NCBI GenBank assembly: GCA_027487075.1
Contig: JAIYEG010000002.1
Span: forward strand, 79,202 to 143,201
From: a bacterium
GTDB taxonomy: Bacteria; Patescibacteriota; Minisyncoccia; Phycocordibacterales; CALRBL01
Direction: 5' to 3'
DNA length: 64,000 nucleotides
The notes below the pieces were generated by a model. The model worked only from the letters and a program-made list of their open reading frames with translations, did not search any database and was not told where the DNA came from. The position numbers were made by a program, and so were the translations under genes. Within the stretch, counting starts at the first letter, position 1. The number at the start of each line of letters is the position of its first letter. This document shows positions 2,826 through 63,821 of this stretch, in pieces.

Positions 2826-2844
2826 TTTTGTGGTATTGTGTGGC

Positions 2845-3190
2845 TCTGCGCCAGACAATCGCTCTCGCTTGCGAGGGAGGAAAGTCCGAACACAGCCAGC
2901 TTCGGCTGGAGCACGTAGCGGGTAACGCCCGTCTTGTCATATTCAAAAAGGGGCAAAGAGGTGCGAGCAGTGACGCTTGAAGCGAAAGCAGAGAGCATCC
3001 ATAGCAATGTGGATGAATCCATGTGGTAACACACGGAGTGAAACGGCAAAATCCTTACGTCTGTGCAAGGCCGTGTCCCACGAAGTAATTCGTGGTGAAG
3101 TGCCGCTCGAGGGTGTCAGCGATGACACTCCCAGATAAATGATTGTCACCACAGCAATGTGGCACAGAATTCGGCTTATCGGCGCAGGAC
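2845..3190 (+). ncRNA. rnpB: RNase P RNA (bacterial type A-like)
   Basis: Conserved blocks in native order: gggaggaaagtccg (CR-I GGAGGAAAGTCCGGGC), ggtaacgcc, ggagtgaaacgg, acagaattcggcttatcgg (ACAGAANCCGGCTTA). P1 pairs ctgcgcc (2846-2852) with ggcgcag (3181-3187). An extended -10 tgGTATTGT sits just upstream. The ORFs called across this region are spurious. Confidence 0.85.
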
Positions 3191-3197
3191 ATACATG

Positions 3198-3226: not shown

Positions 3227-3676
3227 TGTTGCTTGACAAAAATTTAATCCGTCGTATCCTGAAAACAAGTGCGCTCTTTAAGAACTAGGTTTGCTGGTAC
3301 ACTGAAGTGCGCATTAGATGCAAAAGGTGGTAATTGATTGGCCTCTGCACCTGCAAGTCATGATATCCCAAGGGTGAATTCGGAATTCACAGGCAGCTTC
3401 CTTCATCAGTCGGAAGCTGATTCCACTATCCGTCATCACTTTCTGGCGCTGGTCACAGCCAAAACGAAAGGATGAAATGCCGAGTTTAACGTCAGTTACG
3501 GCAGCTCAGGGGAAGACCTGAGTACTTTTCAAGAACATGCGGAGCGTCCCGCCTTCAGTGATCACCATCACTGGAGATTATTGTTGCAAAATGCACACCG
3601 CGACAACGCCGCCGGCAGCGCCACCAACAGGTGGGCACAGAAATACGGCGCACAACATGATCGCGCGCACTGACCA

Positions 3677-3717
3677 TCAGCCGTCGTTCCCTCGGGAGCG
3701 GCGGCTGAATTTTTTTA
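3677..3717 (+). terminator. Intrinsic terminator / possible attenuator 40 nt upstream of leuS
   Basis: TCAGCCG...(inner stem gttcc-ctcg-ggagc)...CGGCTGA followed by atttttttt. It closes a roughly 470-nt GC-rich noncoding stretch. Confidence 0.6.
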
Positions 3718-3754
3718 TATAACAACCATTTCATGCTATGATTTTTTAACTTAT

Positions 3755-20034: not shown

Positions 20035-20412
20035 ATGCGTATCCTAGGTATCACTATTCCAGATGAGAAGCGACTTGAGATCGGCCTTACCGCACTCTAC
20101 GGTATCGGACGCCCTCGAGCCCTTAAGATCCTTGCACAAGCTAAAGTAGACGCGGGAAAGAAGTCAAAAGACCTCACCCCTGAAGAAGAGAACACTATCC
20201 GTACTATCGTAGAAGCCTTCAAGATCGAGGCGGACCTCAAACGAGAAGTATCAGCAAACATCAAGCGCCTCAAAGATATTAAGTCATACCGTGGTAGCCG
20301 ACACGCAAAGCGCCTTCCAGCTCGCGGTCAGCGCACTAAGACCAATGCTCGAACACTCAAGGGAGTGAAGAAGACTATGGGAAGCGGACGACGCAAGGAA
20401 TCAAAGACATAA
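20035..20412 (+). CDS. rpsM: 30S ribosomal protein S13
   Basis: MRILGITIPDEKRLEIGLTALYGIGRPRA. Confidence 0.95.
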   Translation: MRILGITIPDEKRLEIGLTALYGIGRPRALKILAQAKVDAGKKSKDLTPEEENTIRTIVEAFKIEADLKREVSANIKRLKDIKSYRGSRHAKRLPARGQRTKTNARTLKGVKKTMGSGRRKESKT

Positions 20413-20430
20413 ACATAATTAATTAGCCAT

Positions 20431-58302: not shown

Positions 58303-59558
58303 TCATCATAAGCTTCATCGGCATCACCTGGCTCTCTGCCACTGCGGTACGTGCAGAGGATGCAGAGCAACTCCGTGCTCAAATCGAGCTTCGCAACAAA
58401 AATATCAAGGCGCTTGAAGAAGAGATTGCAAAATACCAGGCTGAAGCCGATAAAACTTCTGCCGCAGCACTGACTCTCGCTAATACCATCAAAACGCTCC
58501 AAGCAACAGGTAAAAAACTCGACACCGATATCAAGCTTACCCAAGAAAAAATTAAGGCAACAAATCTTAATATCCAAAAACTCTCAAACGATATCGGCGA
58601 CAAAGAACAGCGTATCAAAAAGAGTCGTGAATCAATCGGTGCCAACATTCGCCTTATCAATGAAAGTGATTTTTCATCACCCATTCACAACTTCCTTAGC
58701 AAGAAAAACATCTCGACAACGTGGGATGCGATCACGCGCATAGTAACGTTGCAAACACAACTTCGAGATCACATTCACAACCTTGATGGTACCAGGACGG
58801 CCCTCGAAGAAGACAAGCAAAAAACGATCGAAAAAAAGGATCAGCTCAGTGACTTTTCAAAGGAACTCACAGACCAAAAAAAAGTAGTCGCCGCAAACAC
58901 CGCTGAGAGAAATAATATCCTTAAAGAAACCAAAAATCAGGAAGCAGCATTTCAGGCACTCGTAAAAGATAAGCAGGCAGCAAAAGCAGCACTCGAAAAA
59001 GAGATTTTTGACTACGAGTCCAAGCTCAAATATATTCTCGATCCTTCGAGTATTCCCGTAGCTGGTTCAGCTCCATTCTCGTGGCCCCTAAAGGATGTAT
59101 TCATCACTCAACAATTTGGTAGAACGTCAGCATCAGGGCGTTTATATGCATCTGGTTCTCACAACGGAACCGATTTTCGAGCGCTCATAGGTACTGCTAT
59201 TTATGCAATGGCTGACGGTGTGGTGGCAGGCACAGGCAACACCGATCTTTCATGTCCTCGTGCATCATTTGGAAAGTGGATTTTGATGAAGCATGACAAC
59301 GGTCTTGCCGCGACCTTCGGACACCTTTCAGTGATATCGGTCCAGGACGGTCAGAAAGTAAAGCGTGGTGACATTATTGGATACTCAGGTAATACCGGCT
59401 ACTCAACTGGTCCACACCTCCATATCAGCGTGTATCCAAACGACGCCGTATCTCCACAGAGTCGTCCAAGCGCAAGTTGTGTAGGAAAGACGCTCTATAT
59501 GCCAATTTCTGCCGTGACCGCATACCTCGATCCGATGCTTTATTTCCCGAAATTATAA
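58287..59558 (+). CDS. M23 metallopeptidase with an N-terminal coiled coil (EnvC-like)
   Basis: Signal peptide, long coiled coil, HNGTDF (HxxxD) and GYSGNTGYSTGPHLHISV (HxH). Confidence 0.85.
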   Translation: MRRTLIIISFIGITWLSATAVRAEDAEQLRAQIELRNKNIKALEEEIAKYQAEADKTSAAALTLANTIKTLQATGKKLDTDIKLTQEKIKATNLNIQKLSNDIGDKEQRIKKSRESIGANIRLINESDFSSPIHNFLSKKNISTTWDAITRIVTLQTQLRDHIHNLDGTRTALEEDKQKTIEKKDQLSDFSKELTDQKKVVAANTAERNNILKETKNQEAAFQALVKDKQAAKAALEKEIFDYESKLKYILDPSSIPVAGSAPFSWPLKDVFITQQFGRTSASGRLYASGSHNGTDFRALIGTAIYAMADGVVAGTGNTDLSCPRASFGKWILMKHDNGLAATFGHLSVISVQDGQKVKRGDIIGYSGNTGYSTGPHLHISVYPNDAVSPQSRPSASCVGKTLYMPISAVTAYLDPMLYFPKL

Positions 59559-59574
59559 AGGTATACTATTTCTT

Positions 59575-61446
59575 ATGTGCGGAATTGCAGGCATTATCGG
59601 AAATCCTCGTTCAAAAAAAGAAACCATCAAGAAGATGGTGGACGCTATCACTCATAGAGGCCCAGACGATGACGGCTACTTTAGCGATCCGTTTGTGACG
59701 TTCGGCATGCGCCGACTTTCTATCATCGACCTTGGCGGAGGCAAGCAGCCTATCGAAAATGAAACGGGGAGCCTTGTCGTTGTCTTCAATGGCGAGATCT
59801 ACAACTATCAGGAACTCTACGACGAGCTCATCGGCAAAGGTCACACCTTTCGCACCAAGAGTGATACCGAGGTGCTCCTCCACCTCTACGAAGAAGAAGG
59901 TGAAGCTATGCTCACCAAACTTCGCGGAATGTTTGCTTTTTCTATTTATGACAAGACCACTAAAGAACTTTTCATCGCGCGCGATTACTTCGGTATCAAG
60001 CCACTTTACTACCTCGTCAAAGATGACAAGATCGTCGCTTACGGGTCAGAGATCAAAAGTTTGCTCCACTATCCAGGCTTCAAGCGAGAGGTAAACAACG
60101 ACGCGGTCTACAACTATCTTTCATATCAATACAACCCGCTCGAAGAAACCTTTTTCAAAGGTATTTGGAAACTTCCCCCTGCAAGCTATCTCAAAATAAA
60201 AATGGACGGCACCAAGCAAAACGTGAGTCAGAATACCTACTGGTCATATAAGTTCGCGCTTCCTGAGACAGACGAGAAAAAACTCAAAGCTGAAGTACTT
60301 TCAGGACTTGAGGATTCGGTGAAAGCACACATGGTAAGCGACGTGCCTGTCGGCTCATTCTTGAGCGGTGGCATCGACAGCGCATCAATCGTGGCACTGA
60401 TGAGCAAGAACACGCAGCAAAAAGTGTCGACCTTCACTATTGGCTTTGACAAAGTCAGCGAGCTCAAGGAAGCAAAGCAGATGGCAGACTTTATCGGCAC
60501 CGATCACCACGAAATCCTTCTCAAATCAGACGAGTATCTTGCCGCGCTTCCGAATATCGTATGGCATTTTGATGAGCCAGTTGCTGATCCTTCGGCCGTT
60601 GCACTTTATTTCCTTGCAAAAGAAGCCCGCAAGCATGTAAAAGTGGTACTTTCAGGTGAAGGCGCAGACGAGCTCTTCGGCGGATACAACATTTACCGCG
60701 AACCATTCGCGCTCCGCAAGCTCAACATCATTCCCAAGGCTCTTCGCGATCTCTTGCTTCGACCTCTCGCATTTTCAGGACTCAAGTTCTTCGGCAAGAA
60801 CTATCTGCGCCGCCATTTTATGAAAATCGAAGATCGCTACATCGGCAACGCCCACATCTTCAAATCAGGAGAGCTTGGACATTTGTGGGTCCACAAAGAT
60901 GGAGAGAGCAGGGAGGATCGCCTTTCACTTGAGCCATGGTATCGCAAGATGAAGGGTCTTACTGACTCACAAAAAATGCAGTCAATCGACATTGCATTTT
61001 GGCTTCCTGGTGACATTCTTCAAAAGGCAGACAAGATGACGATGGCACACTCCCTCGAACTTCGCGTGCCTTTTCTTGATAAGAAGATTGCGGAGATTTC
61101 TGAGAAAGTTCCTGAAAGTTTGAAATACAAAGGAGGGAAGACCAAATACATTTTGCGTGAAGCACTCAAGGGTGTACTTCCTAAGGCAACCGCTGGCCGC
61201 AAGAAGCTTGGCTTCCCTACAGCGCTCCGCCACTGGCTTCGTGAAAAACCTGAGGCTTTCTCTACGGTCATCATAGAAAATGAGTACATCAAAGAGCACT
61301 TCAAGCTCGGCTTCATCAAGCATCTCTTCAAAGAACACGCATCTGGCAAAGCCGACAACTCTCGTAAGATTTATATTCTTTACATCTTGGCGCTTTGGTA
61401 TACTGTGTTTATTGAAGACAAGCCGTCTGTGTCACCTACAGCATAA
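59575..61446 (+). CDS. asnB: Asparagine synthetase (glutamine-hydrolysing)
   Basis: MCGIAGIIG (N-terminal nucleophile Cys2) and SGGIDSASIV PP-loop. Confidence 0.9.
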   Translation: MCGIAGIIGNPRSKKETIKKMVDAITHRGPDDDGYFSDPFVTFGMRRLSIIDLGGGKQPIENETGSLVVVFNGEIYNYQELYDELIGKGHTFRTKSDTEVLLHLYEEEGEAMLTKLRGMFAFSIYDKTTKELFIARDYFGIKPLYYLVKDDKIVAYGSEIKSLLHYPGFKREVNNDAVYNYLSYQYNPLEETFFKGIWKLPPASYLKIKMDGTKQNVSQNTYWSYKFALPETDEKKLKAEVLSGLEDSVKAHMVSDVPVGSFLSGGIDSASIVALMSKNTQQKVSTFTIGFDKVSELKEAKQMADFIGTDHHEILLKSDEYLAALPNIVWHFDEPVADPSAVALYFLAKEARKHVKVVLSGEGADELFGGYNIYREPFALRKLNIIPKALRDLLLRPLAFSGLKFFGKNYLRRHFMKIEDRYIGNAHIFKSGELGHLWVHKDGESREDRLSLEPWYRKMKGLTDSQKMQSIDIAFWLPGDILQKADKMTMAHSLELRVPFLDKKIAEISEKVPESLKYKGGKTKYILREALKGVLPKATAGRKKLGFPTALRHWLREKPEAFSTVIIENEYIKEHFKLGFIKHLFKEHASGKADNSRKIYILYILALWYTVFIEDKPSVSPTA

Positions 61447-61804
61447 AGGAGTGATCCCACCTTACGTGCGATGACTGTTTTGTCCTGGAGATGAGTTTGA
61501 ATGGCGTTCGCACGAATGCCGGCTCTTTTCAGGAAACAACGTTAGTAATTAGCCTATCGATAAAGCGCAATGCAACTGAGTACCACTCAACACTGCCGCG
61601 GGTCCGATATCAGTATCGGACATCACCCCATCGTAACGACGGAGCCGTCCGTCCACTGAAAGGAGGTGATTTGATTCACTCAAAGGTAAGCGGCACACGC
61701 CCTCTCAACTGCGTGACCAAATACTGATGAGTAGACCGTGCGCAACGGACAACGGTCGTCCACGCGCTTAGGCCGGCGAGTTTAAACGGCTCGTCTCATT
61801 CCAA

Positions 61805-61850
61805 GCACCCGGATACATGTCTCATCGAGATGTGCCCGGGTGCTTTTTTA
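61805..61850 (+). terminator. Intrinsic terminator closing a roughly 400-nt structured noncoding region
   Basis: GCACCCGG...(inner imperfect hairpin)...CCGGGTGC + tttttt. Confidence 0.6.
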
Positions 61851-61882
61851 TTCTATTAACAATACCTGTAGATATGCTATAG

Positions 61883-62398
61883 TTGCTGTACATGAAATCC
61901 TGGCTTAAAAAGCTTTTTTATACTGTAAATAACACTCCTAAAAAACCAGATCAGGAGCTTTTTGATCGTGCTTACAGTAATCGCAAAGAAGAAATTATTT
62001 CTTTAAGAAAATATGATCGTGGAGAAAAACAAATTACACCATCCAACCTCAGAAAACTTGTTCAGAGCATACGCTAAACTGCAAGAACTTGAGTCTATTC
62101 CTATAGATATCCTACTGACGAAAATAAAGCTGCGGCATACTTCTGCTACATAATAAAAGATCATCCCGTAACAGACGGAAACAAAAGACTCGCTGTATAT
62201 TATTTAGAAATTTTCTGTGAAGAACACGATCTTAAAATTGACTTGCCGGTATACCCAGAAAAGATGACGCTAGATAAGCTTGCGGTATCAGTAGAAAATA
62301 CAAGTAGTAAAGATATGGACATGGATAATCTTATAAAAGCTGTTGAAATTATATTATTCAAACTAAACAAAGCACACAAGGAGGTAAGAATTTCATAG
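61883..62398 (+). pseudogene. Doc/Fic-family toxin gene interrupted by two in-frame stops
   Basis: The same frame reads MLYMKSW...KLVQSIR, then TAA (62075) and TGA (62090), then ...YFCYIIKDHPVTDGNKRLAVYYLEIF... (Fic motif HPxxDGNKR), ending in TAG at 62396. There is no start codon between the stops and the motif. Confidence 0.55.
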
Positions 62399-62689
62399 CA
62401 CCTAACAGTCTAGAACTTTCATGCTTGAAGAGTAGGGAAGAGTCCCCTGCTACTAAAGGCTAAAAAGTAAGACTTCGGTAAGTAGGCGAGTATACATCAA
62501 CGATGATTAAGAAACTATAAAAGTATGATGGATATTTTGCATTAGCAGAATTCATAAGAGCGCCAAAGGTATCAAAAAAAATACAGCTTTAGCAATACAG
62601 AATGTCGGGAGTAGCGTAGTATAGTGTGTCGCAAAAGATACATTGTGCGACATCATATATGCCGCTCCCCTAGGAGTTATCCACAGTCA

Positions 62690-62730
62690 ATAAATAAAAA
62701 ACTGGCGTGGATTTCTCCACGCCAGTTGAT
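62690..62730. terminator. Bidirectional terminator
   Basis: aaaaaaCTGGCGTGGA-tttc-TCCACGCCAGttgatt, a 10-bp stem with a T-run on the minus strand. Confidence 0.6.
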
Positions 62731-62777
62731 TAATCTGCCCTCCTTCCTATTAAAATTTAATTGAGAAATGTTGCAGC

Positions 62778-63212
62778 TTAGGCTGCCGCAGCCATTTCCT
62801 CAGCACCAGGAGGAAAGATCACATTCGTTGCGCACCCAACGATGTAGTCGAACGTGATGTTCTGATCGGTGACGTCGAGCGCCGTAAACGCCGCATGCGT
62901 CTTGAGGATCTTCAGTCCGATCAGCTTCCGCAGCAGATCGTTGACAACTGCTTTGGTGGTACGCATCCGACGGCAAACCACTGCACGCAACTCCTTCGTA
63001 TTCACCATAGTGGCAGTAATTTCCTCTACCACCTTCCTTCGAGTTCGCGTAGCATTGCGATTGAATTCTTCGCGAGAGCGCTCCTGGAAATGTGCGTTGT
63101 AGACGACCCGGAGGATTTCCTGAAGGATTTCCTGGGGGGTCCGGAAGTTGGTAGGATTCTGACGGACCGTCTTGCAACGAGCCCCACGATGACGAACTTT
63201 CTTTTTGATCAT
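62778..63212 (-). CDS. Hypothetical basic protein
   Basis: 144-aa ORF. A terminator lies downstream on the minus strand. No motif recognised. Confidence 0.4.
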   Translation of the reverse strand: MIKKKVRHRGARCKTVRQNPTNFRTPQEILQEILRVVYNAHFQERSREEFNRNATRTRRKVVEEITATMVNTKELRAVVCRRMRTTKAVVNDLLRKLIGLKILKTHAAFTALDVTDQNITFDYIVGCATNVIFPPGAEEMAAAA

Positions 63213-63350: not shown

Positions 63351-63821
63351 TTACTTAACACTCACATTCACAGCGAGAGCTTGGTCTGCCTTGGGTCCCC
63401 AACATGGTCGGGACGCACTCCATGGCTGAGCCCCCTGCTCGTCGTACAGATACTCACCGTACTCAAGGTTACCCTTAAGTGTATAAATATCGAATCCGAG
63501 CTCTTTAGAACGTTGGAGGTGATACTTCTCATTGATCTGCATTACCCCCACATCGGCAGGATTCACCTTCCCTCGAAGGAGTACCCCATCCGATACATAC
63601 TGTCGATAATGTGATTCACAGCGAGCGATTTCGGCAAGAAGTGGCTTGTCCTTAAAGAACTCGCGTGTAATCTTCTTGATGTCAGCACTGCTGGTTGCGT
63701 TAGTAATGTCAATATTCTGTTCTGTAGTTGTTACTGCGACTGTCTGAGCCTCTAGATTAACTGGGCCTTTGATGATGTCAGGGGTATTTGCTACCGAGAC
63801 GAGCATCATCGAACTAATCAA
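63351..63821 (-). CDS. Transglycosylase (SLT/lysozyme-like) domain protein, likely secreted
   Basis: ...IARCESHYRQYVSDGVLLRGKVNPADVGVMQINEKYH... resembles the SLT catalytic region (ES...GLMQI). N-terminal hydrophobic signal. Confidence 0.5.
   Translation of the reverse strand: MISSMMLVSVANTPDIIKGPVNLEAQTVAVTTTEQNIDITNATSSADIKKITREFFKDKPLLAEIARCESHYRQYVSDGVLLRGKVNPADVGVMQINEKYHLQRSKELGFDIYTLKGNLEYGEYLYDEQGAQPWSASRPCWGPKADQALAVNVSVK

Follow-up and report, generated by a model that had tools for sequence, protein, structure and literature searches.

The 64,000-nucleotide (nt) stretch of DNA analysed here (contig JAIYEG010000002.1; hereafter the window) carries, directly after the stop codon of the gene asnB, an element at 61447-61849 on the + strand that very probably belongs to a family of structured non-coding RNAs not described before, about 310-425 nt in length. 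The conserved features of this RNA family are two helices in its 5' module (P1 and P2, the latter with a GYUCUUU box), a Shine-Dalgarno (SD)-like box complementary to the 3' tail of 16S rRNA, a further helix (P7) and a terminator. We propose that the GYUCUUU box acts as a boxA-type signal that protects transcription of the RNA and that the SD-like box is kept masked. For the combined statement, that a new RNA family, boxA-protected transcription and a masked SD-like box all hold together, we see the case as evenly balanced.

Relatives of the window's AsnB are found in metagenome-assembled genomes of Paceibacteria/Nomurabacteria (73-74% identity) and in metagenome assemblies (79-83% identity), and they place the source of the window, as far as this protein can tell, in a patescibacterium of the Paceibacteria/Nomurabacteria group. 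To our knowledge, almost nothing is known about the regulatory RNAs of Patescibacteria (the candidate phyla radiation, CPR), which account for a large share of bacterial diversity and have tiny genomes.

A structured non-coding element follows asnB

The gene asnB occupies 59575-61446 on the + strand. In the element behind it (61447-61850), the + strand folds with a minimum free energy (MFE) of -155.7 kcal/mol, compared with -120.9 +/- 5.9 kcal/mol for dinucleotide shuffles (z = -5.9; none of 100 shuffles folded as well), and the fold z-score of the - strand is -3.3. The GC content across the element is 51-55%, versus 44.8% for the whole window. The G-U pairs in P1 and P7, the orientation of the terminator and the fold z-scores together indicate that the RNA is on the + strand.

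A sequence-only reading of this DNA had described the element as a structured non-coding region without a credible open reading frame (ORF), ending in a strong terminator, and had interpreted it as a small RNA (sRNA) or as a leader of a downstream locus. The first of these interpretations is borne out by the conservation of the element after asnB, by compensatory base-pair changes, by the lack of a conserved frame and by the terminator at the end (GCACCCGG...CCGGGTGC followed by T6), an equivalent of which, a stem with a U-run on the + strand, closes every member of the family. The two hairpins that had been singled out, gtccgata-tcag-tatcggac (61602-61621) and gaccg...cggtc (61734-61757), are real, but both lie in parts that vary between relatives, and the conserved features lie elsewhere (Table 1).

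The absence of a credible ORF was also confirmed. The sole + strand ORF of at least 50 amino acids (aa), at 61491-61727, encodes 78 aa of low complexity with no Pfam match and no homologue among 5.8 billion proteins, in a search designed to pick up homologous RNAs miscalled as ORFs as well. The existence of this 78-codon ORF is what would favour the element being the decayed remnant of a protein-coding gene, an origin that the sequence-only reading had itself named as incompatible with its interpretation. However, besides the negative Pfam and protein searches, no frame is conserved, the longest stop-free stretches vary between members (34-90 codons), insertions and deletions are not multiples of three, and the changes in the helices are compensatory at the RNA level. 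We consider such an origin to be extremely improbable. For annotation, the called ORF at 61491-61727 is spurious.

Table 1. Features of the element and of the end of asnB in the window
Feature	Position	Strand	Remarks
Possible extended -10, TGGTATACT	61396..61404	+	Inside the 3' end of asnB (W-Y-T codons); speculative
asnB stop codon TAA	61444..61446	+	RNA family begins at the next base in every member (alignment A1: ...ATAA, then AGGAGT...)
P1 hairpin, AGGAGUGAUC paired with GAUGACUGUU, variable tip	61447..61479	+	Begins at stop codon +1; alignment A6
P2 domain, outer helix CCUG (61484-61487) with CAGG (61530-61533)	61484..61533	+	Covariation
GAUGAR box, 5' strand of P2	61490..61495	+	Fixed in sequence; last three bases predicted to pair with GYU(C)
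boxB-like hairpin UGGCGUUC-GCAC-GAAUGCCG	61502..61521	+	Directly 5' of the boxA-like box
boxA-like core GCUCUUU	61522..61528	+	GYUCUUU invariant in 9/9 core members
Variable middle region, including hairpin 61602-61621	61535..61621	+	Length and sequence differ in every relative
Anti-SD-like AUCACCCC	61622..61629	+	Predicted partner of the SD-like box in this genome
Hairpin P5 (GACGGA-GCCG-UCCGUC)	61638..61653	+	Shortly before the SD-like box; in most members the hairpin at this place is unrelated in sequence
SD-like box AAAGGAGGUGAU	61659..61670	+	Complementary to the bacterial 16S rRNA 3' tail
Mini-ORF, TTG-initiated, 18 codons	61671..61727	+	Specific to this genome; not counted among the functional parts
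Variable 3' hairpins, including a second anti-SD-like UCACUC (61676-61681) and gaccg...cggtc (61734-61757)	61676..61772	+	
P7 hairpin GGCGAG...CUCGUC	61775..61795	+	Before the terminator; family consensus GGYRAGG-loop-CCUYRYY
Intrinsic terminator, long GC-rich stem + U6	61805..61849	+	Fold

The family occurs in a narrow clade of Paceibacteria

The gene order gltX - M23 peptidase - asnB is shared by contigs whose AsnB is 75-83% identical, and in eight of them (L048, L049, L052, L053, L054, L056, L075 and L078) the same architecture follows directly after the asnB stop codon. Together with the window, these contigs form the core set of nine members; L050 and L051 are synonyms of L049, as L057 and L067 are of L056. 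A divergent form is present in L076 (synonym L077) and L027, in which AsnB is 72-74% identical, bringing the family to 11 members. Both divergent members keep the SD-like box and the terminator and differ in the 5' part; P7 is kept in L076, and L027 has a differently built hairpin before the terminator. The element is absent after asnB in L001, L003-L005, L038, L055 and L058.

With the 404-nt element as query, nhmmer recovered neither a match in 47 asnB loci of GTDB genomes nor the true syntenic homologues, because the family is too diverged for a search that uses sequence alone. The homologues were found by eye first and then by a covariance model. When the Joint Genome Institute (JGI) metagenomes were scanned with a pattern of the 5' module, 16 stretches were returned, one of them real (L067, the same contig as L056) and the others due to chance; the single match in a scan of viral contigs was also by chance. 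In these scans, the RNA thus never turned up away from asnB or in viruses. Neither phages nor plasmids yielded DNA resembling the element in distant searches, and blastn found no second copy of it in the window. On present data, the family is rare and always tied to asnB, and its members all come from one narrow clade of Paceibacteria (Patescibacteria/CPR).

The Nomurabacteria contig CAWIDS010000002.1 (L001/L002) has two asnB copies, which share 73% and 72% identity with the window's; the RNA is absent downstream of the L001 copy, and the L002 copy runs off the contig end.

P1, P2 and P7 are conserved helices with compensatory changes

The 5' module (P1 and P2) was represented by a covariance model, R1, built from seven relatives; the window and L075 were left out of the model, having both been misaligned at the box in MAFFT alignment A2. 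R1 finds the window at 61447-61546 with 32 bits (E about 1e-4 to 2e-4) and L075 with 33.9 bits. The strongest match outside the family, antisense to P1 in L054, has 26.5 bits, and all others have at most 17.4 bits.

In alignment A6, which was fitted to the structure of the model and hence leans towards that structure, 11 of the 18 pairs of the 5' module change on both sides and 88.5% of the cells pair; sliding the partners by 1-3 columns gives 33-60% pairing. For P1 itself, 8 of 10 pairs change on both sides with 86% of the cells paired, as in the exchange of AGACGU/ACGUCU in L053 for AGGAGU/ACUCUU in L056. The outer helix of P2 encloses the GAUGAG box, the boxB-like hairpin and the boxA-like box, and columns 44/106 and 45/105 of P2a change on both sides. 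Inside it, the pairs 51/94, 52/93 and 53/92, which join the GAR of GAUGAR to the boxA-like box, are 100% paired, and the R of GAUGAR and the Y of GYUCUUU covary (AU in five members, GU in three and GC in one, with no mismatch). At the other end of the RNA, P7 was evaluated on A7, a MAFFT alignment made without fitting to any structure: the helix is paired in 94% of the cells, and both sides change in 10 cells, with C-G/U-A and G-C/A-U exchanges. None of 500 shuffles reaches the score of the 5' module or that of P7, although shuffle tests on 9 core and 2 divergent sequences, all from related genomes, overstate the significance.

The lean of A6 and the small, related sample weigh against the family as described here, and so do two further points. 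The RNA is absent after asnB in L055, even though the AsnB of that contig is 82% identical, and it is therefore dispensable. Moreover, we infer the transcript, its 5' end and any processing from the sequence. Across members, 103-177 nt separate the GYUCUUU box from the SD-like box.

The element matches no known RNA family

No Rfam family was matched within the element. In a permissive search of 61000-62800 (to E = 10) with the 4227 models of Rfam 15, which include those for tmRNA, 6S, SRP, RNase P, T-box, riboswitches and OLE/ROOL/GOLLD/raiA, the best match inside 61447-61850 was ceN108, with 16.8 bits against a gathering score of 50. The gathering-level search, which covered the whole window, returned a sole match, RNase P RNA at 2843-3194, and ARAGORN found no tRNA or tmRNA in the window. 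Literature searches found no description of such an RNA in Patescibacteria.

Several candidate identities and signals were rejected by inspection. A tmRNA would have a T-arm and an acceptor, which are missing here, and P7 lacks the T-loop consensus. The 5'/3' pairing of the MFE fold, which recalls the closing helix of 6S RNA, is specific to the window and was not seen in the relatives inspected by eye. The sequence CUGAUGA of a hammerhead is present, but the GAAA core is not and no Rfam model matches. A K-turn or C/D box was dismissed for GAUGA since the opposite strand has no GA, and a CsrA sponge was dismissed since GGA motifs are not enriched. The TATCCT/TGTCCT sequence before P2 is not a -10 element, as the covariation of P2a shows that the stretch is transcribed.

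Among RNAs of similar size, OLE, ROOL, GOLLD, raiA and HEARO, all of which are in Rfam, are likewise multi-helix RNAs of several hundred nt with no known function and a narrow range. The asnB RNA matches none of their models and has far less sequence conservation at junctions. Its parts resemble known things, namely a boxA module, a 3'-untranslated region (3' UTR) sRNA and SD masking; what is new is how they are combined and the lineage in which they occur.

The GYUCUUU box resembles boxA

The GYUCUUU box is unchanged in all nine core members, while mean column identity is 47-62%. It is preceded in each of the nine, at 0-2 nt, by a hairpin of 3-8 bp whose sequence is unrelated from one member to another. 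In gamma-proteobacteria, the NusB/NusE site of rRNA and suhB leaders has the boxA consensus GYTCTTTAANA, and C4 and T6 are the positions mutated to inactivate boxA in E. coli (PMC5725501). GYUCUUU equals positions 1-7 of this consensus with C4 and T6 kept, bearing in mind that a gamma-proteobacterial consensus may not be that of Patescibacteria. Counted over the 10 specified positions of the same gamma-proteobacterial consensus, there are 7 matches in the window, L052 and L056, 8 in L053, L075 and L078, 9 in L048 and L054, and 10 in L049. The box of L049, GTTCTTTAATA, is a perfect boxA 11-mer, and that of L048 is GTTCTTTGAAA.

The surroundings of the box are also those of a boxA. The elements of rrn operons are ordered boxB (a hairpin), boxA, boxC (PMC10250234), and the order of hairpin and box in the RNA family matches the boxB-boxA order of the rrn leaders. 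About 300 nt of ORF-free RNA follow the box, with the boxB-type hairpin 5' of it. BoxA-dependent Nus complexes shield long untranslated transcripts, such as rRNA and CRISPR arrays, from Rho (PMC7665894), and by analogy an ORF-free, C/A-rich RNA that starts at a stop codon would be exactly such a substrate of Rho. The boxA reading is further supported by a second boxA-headed non-coding stretch in the window, described below. We thus lean towards GYUCUUU being a boxA-type antitermination signal, with binding of NusB/S10 as a prediction.

A different account of the same sequences takes GYUCUUU for the U-rich tail that ends a weak intrinsic attenuator or pause site, or for the binding site of another protein; Nus factors would then have no part in the RNA. 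Indeed, a simple scan calls the hairpin at 61502-61521 with GCTCTTTTCA terminator-like, the U-rich box trailing the hairpin, and a weak attenuator made of these two is the main alternative to boxA. Other observations weigh against the boxA reading as well. The box of the window, GCTCTTTTCAG, matches the boxA consensus in the 7-nt core only. NusB/S10 bind single-stranded boxA, whereas the 5' half of the GYUCUUU box is predicted to be paired, its first four bases (GYUC) with the GAR of GAUGAR. Finally, rRNA genes were looked for in the window and in the relatives' contigs for comparison of boxA and anti-SD sequences, and none were found there. On the other hand, terminator tails are U-rich without being invariant, whereas G1 and C4 of the box are the same in 9/9 members; the preceding hairpins have just 3 bp in L049 and L078; and the 7-mer is the boxA core, which extends to 11/11 in L049 and recurs as a second perfect boxA at the head of another non-coding stretch in the window. 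We consider it unlikely that the box is an attenuator tail or the site of another protein, and retain boxA as the preferred reading.

If the box is a boxA, its setting differs in part from that of known ones. In the leaders of rrn, suhB and CRISPR arrays, as in the RNA family, a variable hairpin and then GYUCUUU stand near the 5' end of a long untranslated transcript. Unlike those leaders, the RNA family sits in the 3' extension of a protein gene and has no dedicated rRNA or CRISPR promoter in front of it; most members match the 3' half of the consensus poorly, and the box is predicted to be partly paired. The lambda nutL-N leader and E. coli suhB share with the RNA family a boxA-like element, 100-180 nt of structured RNA and a strong SD-like sequence. 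There, however, the SD serves a real gene and the Nus complex represses its use, whereas here no conserved ORF is present and a terminator follows.

The SD-like box is conserved and predicted to be masked

A complement of the 16S rRNA 3' end, which the sequence-only reading had pointed out, is present as AAAGGAGGTGAT at 61659-61670. None of the 10 members scored departs from AGGAGGUGA by more than two changes, and L076 has a divergent SD-like box, AGGAGUGUGA, recognised by eye. On both strands of the window together, the 11-mer AAGGAGGTGAT is found once. AGGAGGUGA is complementary to the 3' tail of bacterial 16S rRNA, ...GAUCACCUCCUU, this being the general tail sequence, which may not be that of the host.

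In partition-function folds, the SD-like box is paired in every member, with differing partners. In the window, 8 of the 10 bases at 61662-61671 have pairing probabilities of 0.83-1.0, with partners at 61622-61629; A61664 is unpaired and 61671 has a probability of 0.08. A GGAUCACC-like partner right after P2 is predicted by folding in L048 and L054, and complementarity at this place is visible by eye in L049, L052 and L075. The anti-SD-like partner is relocated, still upstream of the box, in the window and L078, with a similar stretch seen by eye in L056. A CACUUCU-like stretch downstream is the predicted partner in L052, L056 and L075. That one strand is frozen and the masking strand moves is expected if the SD-like sequence is a functional element that is kept masked or switchable.

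The SD-like box might also be a real ribosome-binding site, either for a tiny peptide of unimportant sequence or for loading ribosomes that regulate the termination or decay of the RNA. The mini-ORF that the sequence-only reading placed after the box does exist in the window (TTG 4 nt after the box, 17 further codons and a stop), short ORFs follow the box in L049, L053, L056 and L076, and an SD masked by an anti-SD-like strand is a classic means of controlling translation. Yet the mini-ORF is not conserved in relatives: 6 of the 11 members have no ATG, GTG or TTG at 2-17 nt after the box, and the ORFs of the others have 3-18 codons and are unrelated.

In addition, the genes of this genome give no sign of SD use. 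For 48 ORFs of at least 150 aa, the sequence before the start matches the anti-SD complement no better than random positions do (mean best match 3.10 against 3.04), and matches of at least 5 nt occur in 10.4% of the ORF upstreams and in 10.5% of the random positions; the starts are those of the longest ORFs, uncurated and maybe wrong for some genes, which tempers the comparison. The upstreams of asnB (59545-59574), rpsK (20405-20430) and leuS (3725-3754) are visibly without an SD. A ribosome-binding site that directs translation is, in our estimation, distinctly improbable. As a general observation, the genes of this genome, those for ribosomal proteins included, appear to be without SD, and their upstream regions are AT-rich.

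RNA thermometers and translational riboswitch platforms similarly mask an SD by an anti-SD-like strand and have alternative partners up- and downstream. They differ in that there is here no downstream coding sequence to regulate, and no such Rfam model matches.

Proposed mode of action

We propose that the RNA is made by read-through from asnB or from a promoter buried in the 3' end of asnB, and would thus form an untranslated 3' extension of the mRNA. Most relatives have TGGTATAAT at the site of the possible extended -10 in asnB (Table 1), where the promoter scan is silent; L055 has it too, though without the RNA, so the -10-like sequence may reflect codons only. The GYUCUUU box behind its variable hairpin would be an rrn-type boxB-boxA module that loads NusB/S10 and other Nus factors on RNA polymerase. 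These factors would keep Rho from ending the untranslated, C/A-rich RNA before its intrinsic terminator, and might aid long-range folding. The functional 'seed' of the RNA would be the AGGAGGUGA(U) box, whose complementarity to the 16S 3' tail is extended and which an anti-SD-like sequence of shifting position would keep masked. Once unmasked, the box would bind the anti-SD of 30S subunits, making the RNA a ribosome-binding decoy or regulator rather than directing translation.

Binding of 16S rRNA or of the 30S subunit, suggested by complementarity, is a tentative part of this proposal that we rate as rather doubtful. The uniform pairing of the box in the predicted folds, which 30S binding would need to be undone, weighs against it, as does the uncurated choice of starts on which the SD comparison depends. 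A bolder version is that the RNA is a dedicated trans partner of the 16S 3' tail in an SD-less lineage, made by a Nus-modified (rRNA-type) polymerase and holding or sequestering 30S subunits or pre-16S rRNA by a switchable anti-SD complement of 9-13 nt. We judge this version improbable; if true, it would be a bacterial RNA that acts directly on the ribosome's anti-SD in ribosome biogenesis or in global translation control.

The main rival to this proposal is that the element is purely a cis-acting 3' UTR of asnB, whose hairpins stabilise the mRNA and terminate transcription and whose SD/anti-SD duplex has no function in trans. It would readily explain why the element starts exactly at the stop codon with no separate promoter called, why it consists mostly of variable hairpins and is dispensable in L055, and why the SD-like box is always predicted to be paired. 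A structural helix, however, should drift by covariation, yet AGGAGGUGA is fixed while its partner changes in sequence and position, and GYUCUUU and GAUGAR are also fixed in sequence. Moreover, 300-400 nt with at least seven helices far exceeds the needs of termination or stabilisation. It appears that a purely structural 3' UTR, although a serious contender, is unlikely, and we keep to an RNA with functional boxes of its own.

Such an RNA would have the hallmarks of a 3'-UTR sRNA. Like CpxQ and SroC, the members lie on the same strand after a stop codon (starting at stop codon +1 in all members), contain the unit's only terminator at their end and carry a short conserved seed, here the AGGAGGUGA box. 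In contrast to those sRNAs, the RNA family is several times longer and more structured, and its seed is complementary to 16S rRNA and not to an evident mRNA.

If confirmed, the family would add a multi-helix RNA that no database model detects. It would also suggest boxA/Nus antitermination outside rRNA in this phylum, to which the second boxA-headed stretch points likewise. A masked complement of the 16S tail in an SD-less genome would raise the question of the role of the anti-SD there and would provide a concrete RNA with which to test it.

A Doc/Fic insert lies downstream of the RNA

The other interpretation in the sequence-only reading, a leader with a translated upstream ORF for the downstream Doc/Fic locus, did not stand. 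The Doc/Fic-like sequence itself is real: it scores 28.4 bits against the Pfam Fic model (cut-off 24), contains the motif HPVTDGNKR and lies on the same strand, 30-550 nt downstream of the RNA, which is the point in favour of a leader. However, it is split by a frameshift and is part of a low-GC insert (32-37%; about 61851-62400, + strand) that occurs only in this genome. A promoter-like site of its own (TTAACA-16-TATAGT with TG, 61856-61883) follows the strong terminator of the RNA, the upstream ORF is not conserved, and in nine other contigs the same RNA occurs with no Doc downstream. In most relatives that carry the RNA, a conserved hairpin (..AGGGAAGAGUCCCCU..) lies within tens of bases of the terminator; its counterpart in the window is at about 62431-62455. 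Since the insert is missing in relatives and the terminator is followed there by this conserved hairpin, the RNA is not a leader of Doc, and we regard control of the Doc/Fic locus by it as very improbable. The Doc/Fic piece should be annotated as an unrelated decaying insert. A 64-aa ORF (61883-62077) upstream of the Doc/Fic remnant might be a former antitoxin.

Beyond the insert, at 62431-62662, two conserved motifs flank 130-250 nt of AT-rich variable sequence. This region has no Rfam match. It is also present in L048 (8290-8440), L049 (8318-8545), L054, L056, L075 and L078, both motifs occur in L005, and the second motif alone occurs in L001, L003, L004, L053 and L058. The first motif is a hairpin, AGCAGGGAAGAGUCCCCUGCU, which on the - strand is followed by a U-run in L049, L054 and L078 and may terminate a small RNA that converges on the asnB RNA. 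The other motif is the hairpin GUCG(C/U)A-AAAGAUACAUUG-UGCGAC, with a conserved loop of 12 nt, and it is spread more widely across Paceibacteria than the asnB RNA.

Farther downstream lie a clean - strand terminator at 62700-62727 and two convergent - strand ORFs. The ORF at 62778-63212 (144 aa) has no significant Pfam match, and that at 63351-63821 (156 aa) has a weak SLT-transglycosylase-like match (E = 0.008). Small - strand ORFs of similar size are found at the same position in relatives.

Other candidate RNAs near RNase P RNA

A second boxA-headed candidate non-coding RNA lies at 3233-3716 on the + strand, between RNase P RNA and leuS (3755). It is headed by the sole perfect GYTCTTTAANA on the + strand of the window, GCTCTTTAAGA at 3273-3283, about 10 nt downstream of a promoter-like TTGACA-17-TATCCT (3233-3262). 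The box is followed by about 430-450 nt of structured sequence with no credible ORF and by a terminator at about 3683-3716. The stretch has no Rfam match with E below 0.3, and its fold z-score is -5.2.

Just upstream of RNase P RNA, at 2449-2824 on the + strand, there may be a third unannotated RNA or a small gene. A 97-aa GTG-initiated ORF with no Pfam match (2515-2808) overlaps this stretch, which has no Rfam match at E up to 1. It begins with a promoter-like TTGACA-17-TAATTT (2449-2477), after which some 340 nt rich in GC lead up to a terminator at 2795-2822; the fold z-score is -3.5.

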